Source: a virus. Taken from it: DNA of 64,000 nt. The position numbers and the translations under genes were made by a program. Within the stretch, counting starts at the first letter, position 1; every line of letters begins with the position of its first letter. This document shows, in pieces, positions 27,675 through 36,490 of the stretch. The DNA lies in IMG/VR virus record IMGVR_UViG_3300031603_000001, positions 133,959 to 197,958 of that record. One strand, given 5' to 3'. A model generated the notes under the pieces. That model searched no databases. It was not told the DNA's origin and worked only from the letters and a program-made list of their open reading frames with translations.

Positions 27675-28064
27675 TTAAAAGCTGTATTTATCCATCCAAC
27701 CGTCGATGACGTCTTTGGCCTCTCTGAGACCGATGTCTTTCTCAGCACGGTACAGTTTGATGGCTGGAATCTTTTTACCAGCGCGGAGCAGAATCATGTA
27801 GCGCCAGTCCTGTACATCCTCGCCAAGGTAAGTAAGCATAACCCCCGGCTTGGTGATGATCCACTCGGCCAGGAGGGCCTTGCGTTCATTATAAGTCATA
27901 CCAAGTACTATGGCTATGGGATGACGGTCACCATTGAGGGTATTTCCCATTTTACGACCGTGACGCTGAGTTATATGCGCCAGCAGATCGTCTATTGCGA
28001 AGCTATCAAACTTCATTAGCTCAACCATCATATTGATGATTGCAGCTTGTACTGCAGGGTCCAT
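27675..28064 (-). CDS. protein with C-terminal ribosomal L7/L12-CTD-like domain
   Basis: GKKIPAIKLYRAEKDIGLREAKDVID matches the L7/L12 KI.AIK..R...GLGLKEAK..VD helix pair. Confidence 0.65.
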   Translation of the reverse strand: MDPAVQAAIINMMVELMKFDSFAIDDLLAHITQRHGRKMGNTLNGDRHPIAIVLGMTYNERKALLAEWIITKPGVMLTYLGEDVQDWRYMILLRAGKKIPAIKLYRAEKDIGLREAKDVIDGWMDKYSF

Positions 28065-28232
28065 ATCGCCTCCTTAGGCTGGTTGTTTATAATCTATTAT
28101 TGTAATAACATTTAAAAACGTGTTACAACAATAAATATAAGTAATGCTTCTCTTGGCTTTTAAACCATCTTTTGCAGGTTATTTAGGTTGTTATCCATAC
28201 GAACTGGTTATCTCCCTTTTTTACCGCACTAC

Positions 28233-28733
28233 TCATATTCTTGTCATTACCATTAACGCTGTTGGTCTATTGAGCTCCAATATAACCTCGCCCATGGTAA
28301 CGTCAAGGCCTTCAGCTATTCTTTGTACATTATCATCACGATCAAACATAGTGTTCCAGTACCCGCCACCGCAGTTTATGGACTTGAGTAGTAAGGCCTT
28401 CTTGCAGTCCATAGGAAGTATGTGATAGTAGGGAGGTAGCGCCTTCTCACGCTCGTCGTGGCTGTCGAACACACAGTCAGCAATCCTCAATACTATATGT
28501 CCTGCAGCTCCAAGGAATGCACTGTCACCGTCAAAGTATCTAGTATTACGATTGTAGCTCTCATCGTACTCACTATGCCCATAGGCATAGATTACCTCAG
28601 CCTGTTCATAAAGATCAGGTGCGTACTTCTCCATCCACTTAAGCATAGCATAAGCAGAGATACCACATCCTCCATAATTAAGGCAGGGTATGGATTGTAA
28701 AACATCTAGCATATCATCAAATGACTGTGCCAT
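28233..28733 (-). CDS. hypothetical protein
   Basis: 166 aa, NYGGCGISAYAM...GHIVL. Confidence 0.7.
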   Translation of the reverse strand: MAQSFDDMLDVLQSIPCLNYGGCGISAYAMLKWMEKYAPDLYEQAEVIYAYGHSEYDESYNRNTRYFDGDSAFLGAAGHIVLRIADCVFDSHDEREKALPPYYHILPMDCKKALLLKSINCGGGYWNTMFDRDDNVQRIAEGLDVTMGEVILELNRPTALMVMTRI

Positions 28734-28837
28734 AATGCTCTCCCAGTTGTGTATTGTGATTGACTAAAGGGTTGGCCCCAGTGGGATAACCAGGGCCGAT
28801 CTCAGTACCAGGAAGGAACAAGGTACCGGTTAATGAG

Positions 28838-28912
28838 TGGATCCTCTTGGATTTGAACCAAGGACTAACGGATTATGAGTCCGCTGCTCTAACCAGACTG
28901 AGCTAAGGATCC
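28838..28912 (-). tRNA. tRNA with CAT anticodon, most like Ile2 (lysidine) rather than Met
   Basis: GGATCCTTAGCTCAGTCTGGTTAGAGCAGCGGACTCATAATCCG...GGTTCAAATCC; resembles the bacterial ileX pattern. Confidence 0.85.
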
Positions 28913-29000
28913 AGTAAATGGTATGTCTTACTCGGCGCATACCTTGCAACCATCACGGTACCGACTGATAACCTGAAGTATCAGCTCCCCTTGAAACAGT

Positions 29001-29546
29001 TTATAGGGCTGCGATCTCCTTTATAGTAGCAGGACCACAACCTTTAGCACCTTTGAGCTCTTCGATGCGGGCTTTAGCTTCTTGTACAGTAACTATCTCC
29101 CATGCATCCAAGACGTTACGAGCACGAGTACTCAGAGTGACATCATCAATGGAGGTAAGTGTGGTGGTTTTAACTACTGGTACAGCAACCTTCTTTGCTT
29201 TACGTACAACAGGCTCAGTTGAATGAGGAATAAATTTACCAGCCTTGACGTCAGCAATGCGTTGGTTCTGCTTGTCAGAGCGGAAGTAGGTACGACCAGC
29301 ATGCTGATAGATACGTTTCACAGTATCATGATCAACACCCTTACCCAGGATAAGGTCACGAGCTTGTATAGCGTTAACGAAGATTGGGTCACCACTCAGT
29401 AGGATAGCAGTGAGTTCAGCACGAATGCTGTCAGTTTCCTTGCCAAAGGTTTCACTCTTAATGATCTTAGCAAGGGTAAGGGCGGGGGTTTGAGAAGCCC
29501 TGGCTTGTGCTGCTTTTGCCTTTACGGCTGTTTTGAATTTGGACAA
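29001..29546 (-). CDS. protein with C-terminal RNA polymerase alpha-CTD-like (HhH) domain
   Basis: IDDVTLSTRARNVLDAWEIVTVQE...KGCGPATIKEI aligns with alpha-CTD IEDLELSVRSANCL..ENI.TIGDL...NLGKKSLTEI; TTG start with AAGGAGG. Confidence 0.7.
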   Translation of the reverse strand: MSKFKTAVKAKAAQARASQTPALTLAKIIKSETFGKETDSIRAELTAILLSGDPIFVNAIQARDLILGKGVDHDTVKRIYQHAGRTYFRSDKQNQRIADVKAGKFIPHSTEPVVRKAKKVAVPVVKTTTLTSIDDVTLSTRARNVLDAWEIVTVQEAKARIEELKGAKGCGPATIKEIAAL

Positions 29547-29797
29547 TTTAATGCCTCCTTTTGTTTAGTTAGTACCACATCAGCTTCCGATTCACCGGAC
29601 ATGTAGCTGCATAGCACATGAGCCACGCTTCCGGTCGGAACCCGTAACTCATAAACTGAGAACCCGACGGAGGAGGGCCGACGGAGGAGGTTCTGCCCGT
29701 TCGTGGGCTGGTGCTTCCATCATTGCAGGAAGCTACGGTGTACACATACACACTGCGGACCCTATTTATATACCACCGGGCCCTAGGTGGGTACACA

Positions 29798-30391
29798 TTA
29801 CTCTGTTACTATACTAGCTAAAGCGTCAGCTCTGTCATTACCTGGGTTACCAGAATGACCATTGATGTGCTTGTACGCTACGATGTACGCCTTGTTCTTA
29901 CTCATCAACTCTATATAAGCTTTGATGTGTATCTTAGCCAAGCCAACAGCGTTGACCTTCCACTCACCTAGTGGCCATTTGGCTACACCAACGTAATCAT
30001 GTACAATCACAACTGGTGTATCATTTTTCTTGGCCCACTGCATAGCATACATAGCGCCTGCCAACTCAGCGCCTATATTGTTACTCTCAATGAACGGGGT
30101 TGTGCCGCTATCAAAGGCTATCTCTTCCCCGTTCTTCCATATAGAGAATGCCCATCCTGCTTTGTTATTTCTGAAGCTACCATCAGTGTATGCCAGTACT
30201 TCAGTTGGTTTAGTTTCAACTACGAATGCCATCTCACTCTGATCAAGCCAGGCTTGTGCATCTGCTGTACTCTTGAAGCCCTTAAAATCATTGGCAACAC
30301 CAGTGACTAGAGCATCACATTCAGCCCATGTAGCTACGATGACGTTTGTTTTACGTCCTTGTTTAACTGCATAACAATTATATTTAGCCAT
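29798..30391 (-). CDS. rnhA: ribonuclease HI with N-terminal hybrid-binding (Cauli_VI) domain
   Basis: YAVKQGRK...TWAECDALVTG...FKGFKS; YTDGS, GAELAG, HDYVGV, GHSGNPGNDRADALA. Confidence 0.95.
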   Translation of the reverse strand: MAKYNCYAVKQGRKTNVIVATWAECDALVTGVANDFKGFKSTADAQAWLDQSEMAFVVETKPTEVLAYTDGSFRNNKAGWAFSIWKNGEEIAFDSGTTPFIESNNIGAELAGAMYAMQWAKKNDTPVVIVHDYVGVAKWPLGEWKVNAVGLAKIHIKAYIELMSKNKAYIVAYKHINGHSGNPGNDRADALASIVTE

Positions 30392-30408
30392 TCTATTTCC
30401 TTACTAAC

Positions 30409-30434
30409 ACAGGCCCCACCGAAGCAGGACCTGT
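30409..30434 (-). terminator. cUUCGg-capped hairpin after the RNA polymerase gene
   Basis: ACAGGTCCTGC-TTCG-GTGGGGCCTGT, 11-bp stem; weak U-tract. Confidence 0.5.
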
Positions 30435-30450
30435 ATCTGTTGATGTACGT

Positions 30451-33400
30451 TTATTTGAAGTACTTCTCATCTTCAAATGTGCCATGAACTGCCTGGTTAC
30501 TCTTGACACTGAAGTCAGCATATGGATCTACTGATTCACGTGGCTTAGCAGTACGTAGCTTATTAACACGTTTAGCATCCATACCATCGCCTATCAACAT
30601 CCATGCTGATTGAGTATGAGCCATACCATCTGGTTCCCACTCAAGAGCAGGAAGAGAGATAATGATCTCTTCACTTGGACGAACAGCACTATATTCTGTA
30701 CCGTACTCCAGTGAAGCACCACGTAAGTATGGAACACCATCTTCAATCGTGATTGACTCAGGATCCAGGATAGGTTCATTGTTTGGATTGTACACACGTA
30801 CTAGGCGTGACTTAGTATCAGGCATGAAGGTCATTGGACCGCCAGTCATCTCTACCAAGCTACCATAGTTCAAGTGTACGATGTATCCACCGTCTGTTAA
30901 CAGTGGGTTAGCAGCATCAAGATACCGTTTAGTCTCTACTAGCCTAGCAGCTACTGGAATGCACTGACCAGCACCCTGTACCATCTCTACTACAGCAGAC
31001 ATATGATCTGACGTTAGCCCACCAGGACGTAGTTCAGACCACAGGTTCTTGATTGATGCAAGCTCAGCTGTATTGACACCATCTACTTCTTCATCGGAAT
31101 GTATCATCCGTCCAGCGAAGACTGCAAGTGGTTCAACACCATCTCTAAGAGCTATGACCTCTTCTTCAACACGTATAAGTACGGTGTTCCAGATGAAGTC
31201 CATGTAATGTAATGGGTCTTCGATCTGTGTGGCTAAGATATCTTCCACATCACCACCGGTATTGAAGTCAGTCATTAACGCATTAACATCAGCACGTGCC
31301 CATGGCATTTCTACCATTTCACGTAGGCTCTGAGCAGTTAAATGCGCTTTCTCTAGCTCTATATAGATCTGAGCTTCGTTCTTCTTGAGACGTACTTCCG
31401 TGCGAAACTTAGCACCCTTAATAGTCAACTCAATTGACTGTAATATAGGCGTTAGGTTAAGATACGGTTTCTCATCAGTACCGTCAGCGAGAACCTTGTT
31501 ATAGATAAGTCCACGATAATACATATTAGTGTACTTACCAATTGATGCACTACCACTGAATACTGTGATAGCCTGTATTGCCATACTCTCCATTGTGGCA
31601 GAGCTTCTACGTCTCTCTAGTCCATCTTTATCGATGTTCAGTCCGACTAGTTCATCGATTAAGCCGGTCCTAATGAGCTTGTCAGCAATGGGTCCACGTA
31701 TAGTCAGTCCACCATCACCATCACTATCTGTGTTTAACTCACCAGCTAGTCCTGCTTCAAGTACAACGAATGGTCCTATGTTAGTACGACCAACCACTTG
31801 TGCAACACCAGCAACGATGGGATATTTACAGAACAACTTGTCACCACGTACACCGGCAACAGGCTTACGAAGAGCGTTGATCTTCTTTGCATGCTCTTCT
31901 GTAACTGTGATAACCAAGCGATACTCAGTGCCATTGAATGGTCTGTGCATCACATAGTTTACTACAACACCTGCTAGTTTCTTAGCTACCCAAGGAAAGG
32001 TCTTACCAAGAGCTAACAGTGCTTCTTGAAGCTTAGAGTTAAGCTCAAGTACTTCGTAGTCTGGATCATCGTTACGAAATGCTTGCATCCTACGACCAGA
32101 CTCAGCCGATACGATCATTTCTTCGTAACTTGGTAGCTTACCACGTAGTATCTCGTCTTCAACAAGATCACGTACGATTGGATCATCTTGCATGAACTGC
32201 CAGAATTCAAAGCCTAGTCCAACAGCTTGACCCTTAACATTCCATATGTTATCATGGGTGATGATCATCCCATTTTCTTTACCATGACGTCCTAGGTACT
32301 CACCAGGGGCAACAGGGTGTACTTTGACATCATTCTCACAGATGACTAGGTCATAGGCTTCCCACTCTAATGGAAAGTCTAATTGCATAGCATTGCGAGC
32401 ATGTGCGTATCCAACCATAACTCCCTTACCTACTGAGTTACCATTGATCCGTACTCTGAACTGACCACTGTTGTGACCACCAAGAGCGGCACCATCGCCA
32501 GGAAGACCGACTGCTCGGAACTTTGCTTCAGATACTACCAGTACCCTTGTGTTGTTGTACACGAAGTACCTACCGTCTTTGCTACCGGCGGGTGTGAACA
32601 GCAAGGACAAGTAACCTATAGCTTCGTGAGCAAACGCTAAGTCACCTTCTGGCCAATTACAAGCGTAGAATGTACCCTTGTTTAGACCAGTGCCGCCCAT
32701 ATATTGAAAGCCCTCATCAAGACTGAGCTTTAACATATAGGATTGAAACTTCTGTTGGAAGGGTTTATTCTTCAACAGTTGTTTAGCTAATCTCTTATCA
32801 CTCACCTTGATGGTGTAAGAGACAGCATCCTTAATACCGAACAAGGCACCAAGACAGATACGTATTGCTACATTCCCTGCCTTCATGTCAGTGTTTGGTA
32901 CTGGTTTGTGGATCTTGAAATCAAGCACAGACTTCATACCATCACGAGTTCTTTTCATCACTGTGATAGGTATGAGCATGTGTGTAATCTCTGTTGACCG
33001 TTCATCACCCTTGGCAACCAGTTCGTCTAAGAACGCTTGGTTGTTACTGGTGTTAAAGATTGCGCTGATTATATCAGTTAGTGAACGCATCTTTTCCTTC
33101 CTCTCCTTGTCCGTGGCTATTACTAGAACAGCAACACTGGCAAGGCTTGTGGTCATCCTGAGCTGACCTGTTGATAGGGCAATGCCCATTACCAATATGG
33201 ACAAGGCGATTATGCCACCTCGTCTTGTACCCAGCATCCGTTGTCCTACGAATCCCAGGGCTTTCTTGGCCGTACTTATTACTAAGCGGGACCAGGCTAG
33301 TGATACTCTTACTATGTAACTAGCATAAAGTACCGCGATTATGGCCATCACTGCTGATTTAATAGCAGTATTGACCGATTTAATGAATAAGGATGTTAAC

Positions 33401-33591
33401 ACTGTCCCTATCACTGTTTCTGTTCTATCTGTACGAGCATAGAACTTGGTTAAGCCCTTGCGTCCTTTGATCAGGATGTAAGAACTAGAGAGCCCAAAGC
33501 GGTCTCTCATGGTTGGTGTGATAGCAGCCGATGCTACGATCACAGTTCCTGCTATAAGCAAGAACGCGACAAACAAAACGATTGAATACAT
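30451..33591 (-). CDS. YonO/QDE-1-like single-subunit two-barrel RNA polymerase (core likely starts at 33090; in-frame hydrophobic N-terminal extension)
   Basis: ordered motifs PGDG...GQFR...GKGVMV...DLVICENDVK, FCKYP, LNTDSDGD (31714-31728), IGKYTN, ELTIKGAK; core 879 aa. Confidence 0.75.
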   Translation of the reverse strand: MYSIVLFVAFLLIAGTVIVASAAITPTMRDRFGLSSSYILIKGRKGLTKFYARTDRTETVIGTVLTSLFIKSVNTAIKSAVMAIIAVLYASYIVRVSLAWSRLVISTAKKALGFVGQRMLGTRRGGIIALSILVMGIALSTGQLRMTTSLASVAVLVIATDKERKEKMRSLTDIISAIFNTSNNQAFLDELVAKGDERSTEITHMLIPITVMKRTRDGMKSVLDFKIHKPVPNTDMKAGNVAIRICLGALFGIKDAVSYTIKVSDKRLAKQLLKNKPFQQKFQSYMLKLSLDEGFQYMGGTGLNKGTFYACNWPEGDLAFAHEAIGYLSLLFTPAGSKDGRYFVYNNTRVLVVSEAKFRAVGLPGDGAALGGHNSGQFRVRINGNSVGKGVMVGYAHARNAMQLDFPLEWEAYDLVICENDVKVHPVAPGEYLGRHGKENGMIITHDNIWNVKGQAVGLGFEFWQFMQDDPIVRDLVEDEILRGKLPSYEEMIVSAESGRRMQAFRNDDPDYEVLELNSKLQEALLALGKTFPWVAKKLAGVVVNYVMHRPFNGTEYRLVITVTEEHAKKINALRKPVAGVRGDKLFCKYPIVAGVAQVVGRTNIGPFVVLEAGLAGELNTDSDGDGGLTIRGPIADKLIRTGLIDELVGLNIDKDGLERRRSSATMESMAIQAITVFSGSASIGKYTNMYYRGLIYNKVLADGTDEKPYLNLTPILQSIELTIKGAKFRTEVRLKKNEAQIYIELEKAHLTAQSLREMVEMPWARADVNALMTDFNTGGDVEDILATQIEDPLHYMDFIWNTVLIRVEEEVIALRDGVEPLAVFAGRMIHSDEEVDGVNTAELASIKNLWSELRPGGLTSDHMSAVVEMVQGAGQCIPVAARLVETKRYLDAANPLLTDGGYIVHLNYGSLVEMTGGPMTFMPDTKSRLVRVYNPNNEPILDPESITIEDGVPYLRGASLEYGTEYSAVRPSEEIIISLPALEWEPDGMAHTQSAWMLIGDGMDAKRVNKLRTAKPRESVDPYADFSVKSNQAVHGTFEDEKYFK

Positions 33592-33676
33592 TTAAGTATC
33601 CTTTCATTTTTTGATACATCTATCCCGTGACTGACCCACGTTATTCAGTCAAGATGTATCTATTATGTGGGTTTTG

Positions 33677-33721
33677 TAGGGCGTAGGGGAATCGAACCCC
33701 ATTGAATCTACCACACGCCCT
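33677..33721 (-). ncRNA. 45-nt mini-tRNA: acceptor + D-loop-like linker + T-arm, no anticodon arm
   Basis: AGGGCGT-GTGGTAGATTCAA-TGGGG-TTCGATT-CCCCT-ACGCCCT-A-CAA. Confidence 0.7.
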
Positions 33722-33735
33722 TCCTTACTTACTAG

Positions 33736-34146
33736 TTATGCACTAGCATCACTCAGCAGCTGATTGTATTGCAGCCAGTTGCGGTCTGCTCTTTCACTAA
33801 CTTCAAGGTAGAAGTCAGAGAGCTTTGTCTTCTCACTCACCAGCTCCCCGTTCTTCCATGTAGAGCGTATCCTAGCATGGGCTGATACTGCTATAGGCAG
33901 CTCAGGGTGTTTCTTTGATAGGGCACAAGCAAGTTTGTCAGCGTTAGCTTCTACAAACCATTGTACCTTATTGCCCCATCCTACCATTGCATTCACATTC
34001 CAAGTCGTATGGTCTCTGTCTAATGCGTACCCGGTCTCAGGTTCACGGTCAGGGATACTCATATGATCAGTGAAATCAAGCGCTTCGAACGCCTCTTTGT
34101 TAAGACGGTTAGCCTTCACTGTGTAATGCTCTTCTTGGGTACTCAT
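33736..34146 (-). CDS. hypothetical protein
   Basis: 136-aa ORF. Confidence 0.7.
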   Translation of the reverse strand: MSTQEEHYTVKANRLNKEAFEALDFTDHMSIPDREPETGYALDRDHTTWNVNAMVGWGNKVQWFVEANADKLACALSKKHPELPIAVSAHARIRSTWKNGELVSEKTKLSDFYLEVSERADRNWLQYNQLLSDASA

Positions 34147-34280
34147 CTCTTACCTTCTTTCTTTGTGTTATTAGTTCTTTTCCACTCACGTATCTCACGC
34201 CCGAGCTTAGCCTGTATGGCACGTTCCTTGGGTGTCATCTCCTGCCCACCCCAGCTGATGTTGGCCTTGATATTACGCAT
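34143..34280 (-). CDS. 45-aa basic peptide
   Basis: coupled at both ends (TGATG and ATGA). Confidence 0.5.
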   Translation of the reverse strand: MRNIKANISWGGQEMTPKERAIQAKLGREIREWKRTNNTKKEGKR

Positions 34281-34915
34281 CACTCTACGTCCTTGTTAAC
34301 ACCGATGTTACCTACGCTACCACCTACTAGTACATTGCAGCGTGCTACCTCATCCAGCTGTGCCTGTGTTGCTAGCTCACGTACTATGGGTGAGTGGTCT
34401 ATGTTGTACGCATCCATGTCCGCCTGTATCTTACGCTCACGTAGTACACTGATGCCCATGCCTAGTACACATACCAATGAGAGCACACTCACCAATGTTC
34501 TACTGTATGGTGTACCTGCCTTCACTACAGTCACCTCGGTGCGTACACGTGTTGTGTCCATGTCCATGTAGCAATCACGTATATAGCTATACATATCACT
34601 ACTATCAGCCAAGACGATGGTATGCGCACTCACATGTATATTACAGTTATCACATACAGCTGTGTCTACGTATCTACCTAGCAGTGGGTGCCATGATGAT
34701 ACCATATGTGTGTTGGTCAACCTAGCCCTACGTATATCAGTAGCATCGTAATGCTTGTGGTACTGCCCATGTCCTAGCATGAAGAAGGTTAGAATTATGA
34801 TTGAATACATTAACGTGTTCCATACCCAGTATGATGGGCTATACTCCTCATACTTTACAGTCATAGGCACACATACTACTACCGCTACTACGGCTAAAAC
34901 GATTAACAGAGTCAT
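34280..34915 (-). CDS. membrane protein, first gene of the leftward arm
   Basis: three TM segments; ATG 34915 after GAGAGGAG. Confidence 0.7.
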   Translation of the reverse strand: MTLLIVLAVVAVVVCVPMTVKYEEYSPSYWVWNTLMYSIIILTFFMLGHGQYHKHYDATDIRRARLTNTHMVSSWHPLLGRYVDTAVCDNCNIHVSAHTIVLADSSDMYSYIRDCYMDMDTTRVRTEVTVVKAGTPYSRTLVSVLSLVCVLGMGISVLRERKIQADMDAYNIDHSPIVRELATQAQLDEVARCNVLVGGSVGNIGVNKDVE

Positions 34916-35167
34916 GATGACTCCTCTCAATCTTTACCTACTTACAAGTAAGAGTCCCTATGGTGTAGGTCTGACCATAGAACTCCGCGATTATTTTAAA
35001 GACCGGGGCCCTCGAAACAAAAGTTATGTATACTATATATACATACTACCCATTAACGTACAGAATATAAAATCCCATATATGCATACGATACTTGCTCT
35101 TTCGCAACTAATCTTGGATATCCGATCCTAAATATATAATATTATTATTAATCTTAGGTTTATATAG

Positions 35168-35356
35168 GTGTTTCGAGCAGGAATCAAAGTCACAGCCATG
35201 CACGACCCTGCGGTTACATTACCACCAGAAGCCGACTATGAGGACACTGCCTGCGACATCGACCATATCTTGCCTTATAAATTCGGGGGAACTACGACAG
35301 AAGAAAATCTCCAGGTTACTTGTAGAAAGTGTAACGCAGAAAAGGGTATCAGTTAA
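35168..35356 (+). pseudogene. HNH endonuclease fragment
   Basis: DIDHILPYKFGGTTTEENLQVTCRKCNAEKG; N-terminal CxxC missing, in-frame TAG immediately upstream. Confidence 0.65.
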
Positions 35357-35417
35357 TCCGCCTTGTACAGTTGAGAAAGCGTACTGGCTAATTCGTAATA
35401 TATAGGGATTAGCCCCT

Positions 35418-36490
35418 TTTACTTGGTCGGTTACTTGGTCGGTTACTTGTACAGGAGATCTCATATATATATATAATAAATAAACAGGCTTATATAGGCG
35501 CAACTACCTATCAAAATGCCTTCTATCCGGAAAGGTTGGGTAGTTTCCGGGCAACTTAGGTACTATCATGGACACTGTCATGGACACTGTGTCTATGTAA
35601 ACGGCCAAAATCCGGCCAATCCGGCCAACATGGACAGGTTGTCCAAGCTGTATTATAGGGGCCATAAAGTTTAATATAGGGGACCTTATCGTCCATATTA
35701 AAGGTTAATGGATAGTATAAGGACCACTATACTGTACGTTAAATAGGGATAACGTTCAGGATACCATATGTTACTTTAGAGGCTTAAAGTACAATATAGT
35801 ATTCCTTATGTTACTTTAGAGTAGTTATGAGACAGTACTGTACCCACTATATTGTGTGTTGAATGCCTTATTTAGTGTGATTCAGGGATATAGAACATGT
35901 CCATGCCATCGACATGACACAAAAACATGTATATATTTGTGTCAGAAATCGACACGTTCTCTCTAATAATTCTATACTAAAGGCAGACAATCGCAATATA
36001 CCCTGGTTATCCAGATATGTATCAACACTTCTGATACACATACCCTTGTGTCAGGAATACTGACACCTGACGTGTCGTCATATGGAGAATTCAGCGACTC
36101 GTTCTCTGTACATGTCGTCACCAGCGACTCGTTAATGCATCAACTAATAACAATCGCACAGCGCCAAGTAATAAGAATTGCACAGGATGCCGTTTAACAC
36201 CCTCTTGTGCAAACTAAATAACACAAACATGGAGATAATATATTACCGTTAGTACAGTAAAGTGGAGATAAATGGTAGATATTTTATCCTAAGTTGCGGG
36301 ATAGGGATAATATTTTACCGTAAGAGCAGTAATCCGCAGTCTACTCCGCAGATTTGCGGGATAAGTAAAAGACATACTAAAGGACAATCTGTCTTATAGC
36401 GACATTTATAGCGACACAATGTCGCGTAAAGGACACAGCAGTTGTGCACTATCCTATGTAATGCACAATATTTAGCACGGAATGTGCACA
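35418..36490. repeat. non-coding tract of successive short-word repeat clusters at the strand switch
   Basis: TTACTTGGTCGG x2.5, ATGGACACTGT x2, TCCGGCCAA x2, TATGTTACTTTAGAG x2, CAGCGACTCGTT x2, GCGGGATA x2, TAGCGACA x2, TGTGCAC x2. Confidence 0.8.

Follow-up and report, generated by a model that had tools for sequence, protein, structure and literature searches.

A previously unannotated family of single-chain two-barrel RNA polymerases in large phages, some with a hydrophobic N-terminus

Two-barrel RNA polymerases (RNAPs), named for their pair of double-psi beta-barrels (DPBBs), are already known to be diverse, with 23 families cited (PMC10770324). The four characterised phage enzymes of this fold, namely YonO of phage SPbeta (Forrest et al. 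2017, PMC5467207), phi14:2 gp66, and gp64 and gp96 of the Thermus phage P23-45 (Chaban et al. 2024, PMC10770324), are all DNA-dependent RNAPs; YonO transcribes late genes (PMC5467207), gp64 the early and some of the middle genes, and gp96 the pre-early genes (PMC10770324). Here we describe P0001, a polymerase protein encoded in the last 64 kb (64,000 nucleotides, hereafter the window) of the 197,958-bp IMG/VR virus record IMGVR_UViG_3300031603_000001, a 198-kb genome (G000) that CheckV rates complete. P0001 belongs to a genuine and previously unannotated family of phage single-chain two-barrel RNAPs, one that is rare and restricted to large phage-like contigs, and we consider it probable that this enzyme, presumably made early and with an apparently intact active site, is the phage's own DNA-dependent RNAP.

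Fold of P0001 and its place among two-barrel polymerases

A preliminary description of the window had placed the polymerase at 30451-33090 (879 amino acids, aa). That interval stands as the polymerase core and not as the full gene: P0001 is read from one uninterrupted minus-strand open reading frame (ORF), with its start ATG at 33591 and its stop at 30451-30453, of which the 879 aa are the last 879 codons, from Met168 (Table 1). An AlphaFold2 (AF2) model built on a 20-sequence family alignment (A1, aligned over the polymerase core) had a mean predicted local distance difference test (pLDDT) score of 76.7, with the core (about residues 190-1010) mostly at 85-95 and the first 190 residues helical and of low confidence. 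Foldseek matched this model in the PDB to QDE-1 (5FSW, 2J7N; E 6e-12 to 1e-9), P32 gp64 and P74 gp62 (E about 1e-9), RDR2 (E about 1e-7), P23-45 gp96 (4e-4) and crAss phi14:2 gp66 (7e-3) and, after the phage matches, to the largest subunits of multisubunit RNAPs. Of the three relatives that had been proposed for such a comparison, QDE-1 and gp66 were recovered, and no YonO entry appeared in the PDB searches. In BFVD the matches were P23-45 gp64 and uncultured-phage proteins at 9-12% identity, some of them named "RNA-dependent RNA polymerase."

Each barrel also has structural matches of its own. For residues 341-447 these are PA4485 and expansins, which are stand-alone DPBB proteins, and the chain of a AAA ATPase, where we take the matching part to be the DPBB N-domain; for residues 550-650 they are RNAP largest subunits. 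Both of the barrels on whose presence the earlier reading had been made to depend are found in the model. It is because of these fold matches, and not because of the motifs themselves, that we regard the motif set as more than chance. As modelled, P0001 is a two-barrel polymerase in which barrel B precedes barrel A, the order also found in QDE-1, gp64 and gp66 (PMC10770324). The QDE-1 and RDR2 structural alignments begin at model residues 196-199, and those of gp62, QDE-1 and RDR2 reach about 919-922; the largest-subunit chains stay aligned across residues 551-804, and the long helix at 667-701 may be bridge-helix-like. The C-terminal beta domain (929-1002) has no assigned structural match.

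By sequence, Pfam and PHROGs gave noise only on P0001, and Pfam run on all 20 aligned members found no family in common. Neither phmmer with P0001 nor hmmsearch with the family profile gave a relevant match among PDB sequences, INPHARED contained no sequence match to P0001, tblastn against 50,697 GenBank phage records found none, the ESM Atlas returned no usable match, and the only megablast match to the region was a tRNA-Met. The RNA-dependent RNA polymerase (RdRP) family PF05183 matched neither P0001 at E <= 1 nor the six-frame genome even at E <= 10, and its control run matched B. subtilis, presumably through yonO in the SPbeta prophage. Aligned by hhalign, the family profile gave insignificant results with both P23-45 gp64 and YonO (probability 1.2% for YonO). 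These searches agree with the suggestion of a new, divergent branch. The YonO/QDE-1-like assignment holds for the two-barrel fold, with its structural match to QDE-1, and fails for membership of YonO/PF05183 by sequence. Among 1.84 billion cluster representatives phmmer found 22 proteins including the query, at 26-60% identity, to which a word-indexed search added one further member. All of the members looked up are unnamed or "hypothetical," and the long contigs that bear them measure 154-202 kb; one member, P0004, is encoded by a 195-kb contig whose source assembly carries the label Acinetobacter sp.

To judge from the model, the nearest solved structure is the Thermus-phage non-virion polymerase and not QDE-1, and the closest known system is that of P23-45 gp64, P32 gp64 and P74-26 gp62 (8F72, 8F5M; Chaban et al. 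2024, PMC10770324). P0001 nevertheless has no sequence similarity to gp64/gp62 detectable by hhalign, is about 430 residues longer than gp64 (a 167-residue hydrophobic N-terminus included), and has K-x-P where gp64 has R-R-P. The virion/non-virion pair of P23-45 may be mirrored by P0001 and a giant tail-locus protein of the structural arm, a candidate polymerase described below. YonO, compared by sequence only, is likewise a single-chain phage enzyme, with a core of 839 aa against 879 aa, and has D-N-D-G-D where P0001 has D-S-D-G-D, followed in each by I-G-x-Y-x-N 60-70 residues later. The best hhalign and BLAST alignments to YonO, although insignificant, place the Asp loop of P0001 on the D-N-D-G-D of YonO and superpose the I-G-x-Y-x-N as well, in agreement with the earlier motif-based recognition. 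In both cases a strand switch comes shortly before the gene, which stands near the beginning of a block of leftward genes; the DNA-dependent activity and late-gene role of YonO are experimental, whereas for P0001 both are proposals.

QDE-1 of Neurospora and plant RDR2 (2J7N, 7Y7P-T, 5FSW, 7W82, 7EU0), at 9-11% identity to P0001, are eukaryotic silencing enzymes that work on RNA or on both templates and have no membrane segment, and QDE-1 has R962-x-P964 where the P0001 family has K-x-P. The virion RNAPs phi14:2 gp66 (6VR4, crAss-like) and P23-45 gp96 (8H2M/8H2N) are parts of giant packaged proteins in structural modules, unlike P0001, which is a stand-alone gene among early genes. In fold and metal site the family of P0001 conforms to the canonical type; what sets it apart is its Lys-for-Arg replacement and, in some members, a membrane-anchor-like N-terminus.

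Active site and family conservation

Ruprich-Robert and Thuriaux called eight residues invariant in all two-barrel RNAPs: the three Asp of DxDxD, the Arg and Pro of RxP, and two basic residues and one Asp of the other barrel (PMC2919709). Six of the eight are present in P0001 (D622, D624, D626, P591, R379 and K389, the last two assigned by motif and not by superposition). With K589 counted at the Arg position, conserved residues of the family fall on seven of the eight. The counterparts of the Asp triad are Rpb1 D481/D483/D485 and QDE-1 D1007/D1009/D1011. P591, 31 residues before D622, corresponds to Rpb1 P448 and QDE-1 P964 by position and by analogy with gp64, whose R-R-P lies 33 residues upstream of its own Asp triad. 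The R379-K389 spacing of 10 is longer than in QDE-1 (5) or Rpb2 (8), and P23-45 gp64 has F-R-A-W-K-G at the place corresponding to this basic loop. As read from the sequence, the active site of P0001 appears intact.

Every motif that the preliminary description listed is present in the translation in the order it gave (Table 1). Its D-S-D-G-D catalytic motif, at residues 622-626, is conserved in the family, and its remark that K-Y-P stands in place of the usual R-x-P applies family-wide for the Lys. Across the alignment G595, D624, G685, I720, E721, K728 and N802 are invariant; at least 90% of rows keep Q377, K389, G390, K589, P591, N620, D622, G625, D626 and about 25 further positions; and R379 is conserved, by eye, in all rows but one (P0021). 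In the family consensus the metal loop reads N-x-D-[S/G/A]-D-G-D, reminiscent of the N-A-D-F-D-G-D of bacterial beta-prime, and the upstream element reads K-[Y/F]-P, not R-x-P. Both DG positions vary across the family (D, Y, H, N). In P0021 (1,007 aa) an insertion replaces the Asp triad, and the conserved R and the K-x-P are also lost; this protein may be an inactivated paralogue or a poor gene model.

Gene position, hydrophobic N-terminus and candidate transcription signals

GC and AT skew change sign at about 36 kb of the window, with genes running leftward below and rightward above this point. That the polymerase lies near the head of the leftward arm, as first described, is correct, because its gene starts about 2-3.5 kb from the strand-switch region (window about 35.5-37.1 kb) with three small minus-strand ORFs upstream of it. 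Genes of the leftward arm are those for a DNA polymerase, a DnaG-type primase, a clamp loader, a Dda-like helicase, a ribonucleotide reductase and a UvsX-like recombinase, and the rightward genes include large terminase, portal and tail fibre. A scan of 29.5-37.5 kb for sigma-70 promoters and terminators gave counts not above shuffles, and we claim no host promoter for the P0001 gene.

The homologue lies near the start of the early/replication block in all four of the other phage-like genomes whose surroundings were examined. In the related phage G001 (188.7 kb, with terminal repeats) it stands near the start of co-directional small early/replication genes, as it does near the start of a co-directional early/replication block in the 195-kb Acinetobacter-labelled contig; in two contigs of about 202 kb it comes after an ArdC-like gene and before Rad52-like, PolA and clamp genes. 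At 8987-12511 of L016 and L017 the homologue P0006 directly follows an ArdC-like antirestriction gene (ArdcN and MPTase-PolyVal); the integrase and ImmA/IrrE-type peptidase about 10 kb away suggest a temperate phage or an integrative element.

Words resembling tRNA dominate the intergenic regions of the leftward arm (13/58), and a tRNA-like fragment with a GGTTCGATTCC T-arm lies between the P0001 start and the upstream ORF (window 33640-33735, minus strand). ARAGORN found four ordinary tRNAs in the window (Lys, Cys, Tyr and Met). The tRNA-Met gene (window 28837-28912, minus strand) is 86-94% identical to tRNA-Met of Acinetobacter phages, which, like the Acinetobacter-labelled contig of P0004, gives a hint of the host; this is probably a mesophilic gammaproteobacterium and not Thermus.

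The N-terminal extension of P0001 encodes three to four hydrophobic helices, and its Kyte-Doolittle 19-residue windows score 1.9-2.8. Before Met168 the frame runs on for 167 codons without a stop, for which we estimated a chance of roughly 3 in 10,000, and Shine-Dalgarno-like sequences stand ahead of both ATGs (Met1 and Met168). Met168 might be a second start, giving a soluble 879-aa form; since it is not conserved in the homologues that bear an extension, its use is a matter of conjecture. Hydrophobic extensions occur in 4 of 18 near-full-length alignment rows (P0001, P0004, P0010 and P0017), and no such segment occurs in the cores. Those of P0001, P0004 and P0010 show no significant mutual sequence similarity and are alike in position and hydrophobicity only. 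The G001 homologue truly has no extension; a 250-aa ORF upstream of it, in the same frame with one stop between, was considered as a split or fused extension and rejected as unrelated to that of P0001. To our knowledge, no further stand-alone two-barrel RNAP has a predicted membrane anchor. The only precedent for a membrane-linked enzyme of this kind, and a loose one, is gp96, which is fused to a membrane-inserting tape measure (PMC10770324).

The rightward arm carries a repeated word that had been put forward as a possible promoter. Its occurrence is real: GACATAACA has six exact copies in the window against 0.7 expected, and 0 of 100 shuffles reach six. Genome-wide, 16 of 18 copies of GACATAAC lie in the sense of local transcription, and 11 of these 16 sense copies precede an ORF start by 9-108 nt, in many cases overlapping the tail end of the gene before. 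Among non-tRNA words in the intergenic regions of the rightward arm, (C)TGACATAAC ranks first, occurring in 6 of 22. G001 carries 12 copies of the same 8-mer, all in reverse and none forward, where a control of the same composition gives 5 forward and 6 reverse; six of the 12 reverse copies read TGACATAACTA. This distribution marks the word as a conserved signal of the structural arm that is specific to one strand, possibly a promoter or a regulatory signal of another kind, and its candidate readers are P0001, a sigma-like factor or something else.

An all-frame motif scan also found R-S-P...R-G-D-Q-D-G-D at about residue 2100 of a 2,668-aa tail-locus protein in the structural arm (L003:7653-15659; G000 27653-35659, plus strand). 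Its Asp loop and Pro are invariant in the only two homologues found, the close P0026 (58% identical) and the distant G001 giant (L012:4042-11640, with R-S-D-L-D-G-D at residue 2029), and we regard it as a candidate injected RNAP like P23-45 gp96. An AF2 model of residues 1480-2668 from three sequences had a mean pLDDT of 30.6, so that the fold is neither supported nor refuted; hhalign of the P0001 family profile against the giant-protein alignment was insignificant, and an IMG/VR pattern scan gave no match. We take the D-F-D-G-D of another structural-arm protein, P0025 (470 aa), to be a chance occurrence. Next to the 2,668-aa giant, a second one of 2,486 aa (L003:203-7663; G000 20203-27663, plus strand) has a Cas4 / PD-(D/E)XK-type nuclease segment at residues of about 1844-1976 (PHROG 1706, E 4e-14).

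Table 1. Features of P0001, its downstream neighbour and the repeated word, in window coordinates
Feature	P0001 residues	Window position	Strand	Basis or remark
P0001, complete ORF; single-chain two-barrel RNA polymerase with N-terminal hydrophobic extension		30451..33591	-	1,046 aa; ORF list, translation
N-terminal extension	1-167	33091..33591	-	hydrophobic segments, then Lys/Glu linker
Hydrophobic segment	1-28	33508-33591	-	Kyte-Doolittle
Hydrophobic segment	75-101	33289-33369	-	Kyte-Doolittle
Hydrophobic segment	124-160	33112-33222	-	Kyte-Doolittle
Internal ATG Met168 (33088-33090) with purine-rich Shine-Dalgarno-like run		33088..33114	-	sequence reading
N-terminal domain of polymerase core, mixed strands and helices	~196-340	32572..33006	-	model secondary structure
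DG motifs	D339-G340, D365-G366
Double-psi beta-barrel B (beta-subunit-like)	~341-447	32251..32571	-
QFR	377-379
KG	389-390
Basic loop G-Q-F-R...G-K-G, candidate match to Rpb2 K979/K987, QDE-1 R738/K743	R379 to K389	32425..32457	-	motif and position, not superposition
D-L-V-I...V-K	414-423
Double-psi beta-barrel A (beta-prime-like)	~550-650	31642..31944	-
K-Y-P, at the R-x-P position (Rpb1 R446/P448)	589-591	31819..31827	-	K589, P591 at least 90% conserved
Metal-binding loop N620-T-D622-S-D624-G-D626	620-626	31714..31734	-	D624 invariant; N620, D622, G625, D626 at least 90% conserved
Long helix after barrel A, with I684, invariant G685, T688, Y691, Y692	667-701	31489..31593	-	model and conservation
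I-G-K-Y-T-N	684-689
Helical C-terminal region (I720, E721, K725, K728, HYMD, W801-N802) and small C-terminal beta domain	702-921; 929-1002	30586..31488	-
I-K-G-A-K	724-728
RNase H1 with N-terminal hybrid-binding domain, 197 aa, directly downstream of P0001		29798..30391	-	Pfam RNase_H 8.9e-13, Cauli_VI 3.3e-09; PHROG 531
(C/T)TGACATAAC sites		37158, 39893, 42492, 44072, 58642	+
(C/T)TGACATAAC site		26048	-

Possible roles of the polymerase and their significance

We read P0001 as an early phage DNA-dependent RNAP because of its context and because all four characterised phage enzymes of the fold are DNA-dependent. The reading is also favoured by the genome, in which no T7-type or multisubunit RNAP domain was found, the T7-type search (PF00940) having been run without a positive control. 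In such an enzyme barrel A would supply the N-x-D-x-D-G-D loop holding the catalytic magnesium, with the K-x-P element upstream of it, and barrel B would supply the basic loop with its conserved Arg and Lys. P0001 would most likely be made soon after infection and, like YonO and P23-45 gp64, would work without the host enzyme, transcribing phage genes from promoters specific to the phage. At least one isoform would be membrane-tethered through the hydrophobic N-terminus. It may in this way control the transcription programme of the phage, as was first proposed.

Several points weigh against this reading. The structural scores of RDR2 and QDE-1 are about equal to that of gp64 and do not discriminate between DNA and RNA as template; because they match equally well, we infer the template specificity and the genes transcribed, and likewise the non-virion status of P0001, and the role is proposed, for an uncultured phage, from its genes. 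The Arg of R-x-P (Rpb1 R446; QDE-1 R962) is absent, with Lys (K589) in at least 90% of the family; this change is conservative, and yeast rpb1-R446A has no growth defect (PMC2919709). For the barrel-B Asp that holds the second magnesium (Rpb2 D837; QDE-1 D709), D339 and D365 are not conserved, and an acidic residue found family-wide at most three positions after S353 (E354 in P0001) is a candidate ligand. A 256-aa protein encoded between the primase and DNA polymerase genes (L014:1084-1854; G000 94287-95057, minus strand) has a borderline Sigma70_r2 match (21-24 bits, cut-off 24; the G001 match to sigma-70 region 2 is weaker, at 14 bits) and may be a phage sigma-like factor that redirects the host RNAP; host RNAP is thus probably also redirected, and P0001 is probably one of several transcription players. 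We also know of no precedent for a membrane-anchored transcriptase.

Were P0001 mainly RNA-dependent or dual-template, like QDE-1 and the plant RNA-dependent RNA polymerases (RDRs), it could act on RNAs of phage or host origin, copying or extending them instead of transcribing genes; the many tRNA-like and small RNAs of this genome would be examples. We think this unlikely, given that all tested phage enzymes of the fold are DNA-dependent (PMC5467207, PMC10770324), that PF05183 is without a match in the genome, and that a position heading the early arms in several phages suits a transcriptase. The RNase H1 with hybrid-binding domain just downstream, an arrangement kept in G001 (where one small ORF lies between and the RNase H1 is 38% identical, E 3e-40), would fit an enzyme that makes RNA primers or R-loops for replication or recombination, with its neighbour processing the RNA:DNA hybrids, as would the 202-kb relatives in which the polymerase stands first in a block that includes Rad52-like, DNA polymerase A and clamp genes. 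Such a role is nonetheless quite unlikely: a DnaG-type primase, a clamp loader and a DNA polymerase are already encoded in the genome, the Acinetobacter-linked and 202-kb relatives lack an RNase H next to the polymerase gene, and an adjacent RNase H equally fits the clearing of transcription R-loops.

The hydrophobic helices fused in frame to P0001, and the joining of the two-barrel RNAP gp96 of P23-45 to a membrane-inserting tape-measure protein (PMC10770324), would be expected if P0001 were not a soluble non-virion enzyme at all, and were instead carried in the virion or inserted in the membrane at the site of DNA entry, pulling the genome in by transcribing it. This we hold to be improbable, since the gene is surrounded by small early genes and is a long way from the structural block, and the extensions are absent from most family members and without significant similarity to each other. 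An inactive relic that keeps the fold with another function or none could account for the Lys that replaces the Arg of R-x-P, for a barrel-B acidic residue that is not identifiable and for the loss of the Asp triad in P0021; it is hard to reconcile with an Asp triad, K-x-P, basic loop and about 35 positions conserved at 21-38% overall identity to the query, a pattern that points to purifying selection on the active site, and we consider it very improbable.

The early DNA-dependent RNAP that we favour could also be part of a P23-45-like relay in a mesophilic contractile-tailed phage of about 200 kb. An injected module of the 2,668-aa giant would transcribe the first genes, that of P0001 included; membrane-anchored P0001 would then work at the inner membrane beside the entering DNA, possibly drawing the genome in, and would either hand the late genes to a sigma-like factor or itself read the TGACATAAC sites. 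We put this forward as a tentative scheme and consider it unlikely. A membrane-tethered cellular-type RNAP has, as far as we know, not been described.

No living enzymes model the ancestor of cellular RNA polymerase more closely than the single-chain two-barrel RNAPs, of which only a few have been studied: YonO, QDE-1 and the RDRs, crAss gp66, and P23-45 gp64 and gp96. The family described here adds a compact, canonical-looking DxDGD member that sequence searches of annotated libraries and known phage genomes missed; it shows that Lys can stand throughout a family in place of the "invariant" Arg of R-x-P, and that a two-barrel enzyme can be fused to a membrane-anchor-like domain. With a candidate promoter-like word and a possible injected partner, and with one clade member assembled with Acinetobacter, the transcription scheme of this clade of phages of about 150-200 kb becomes directly testable. 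A small, self-contained and possibly promoter-specific polymerase could become a laboratory tool, and membrane tethering or a two-polymerase relay, if true, would sharply raise the significance of the family.

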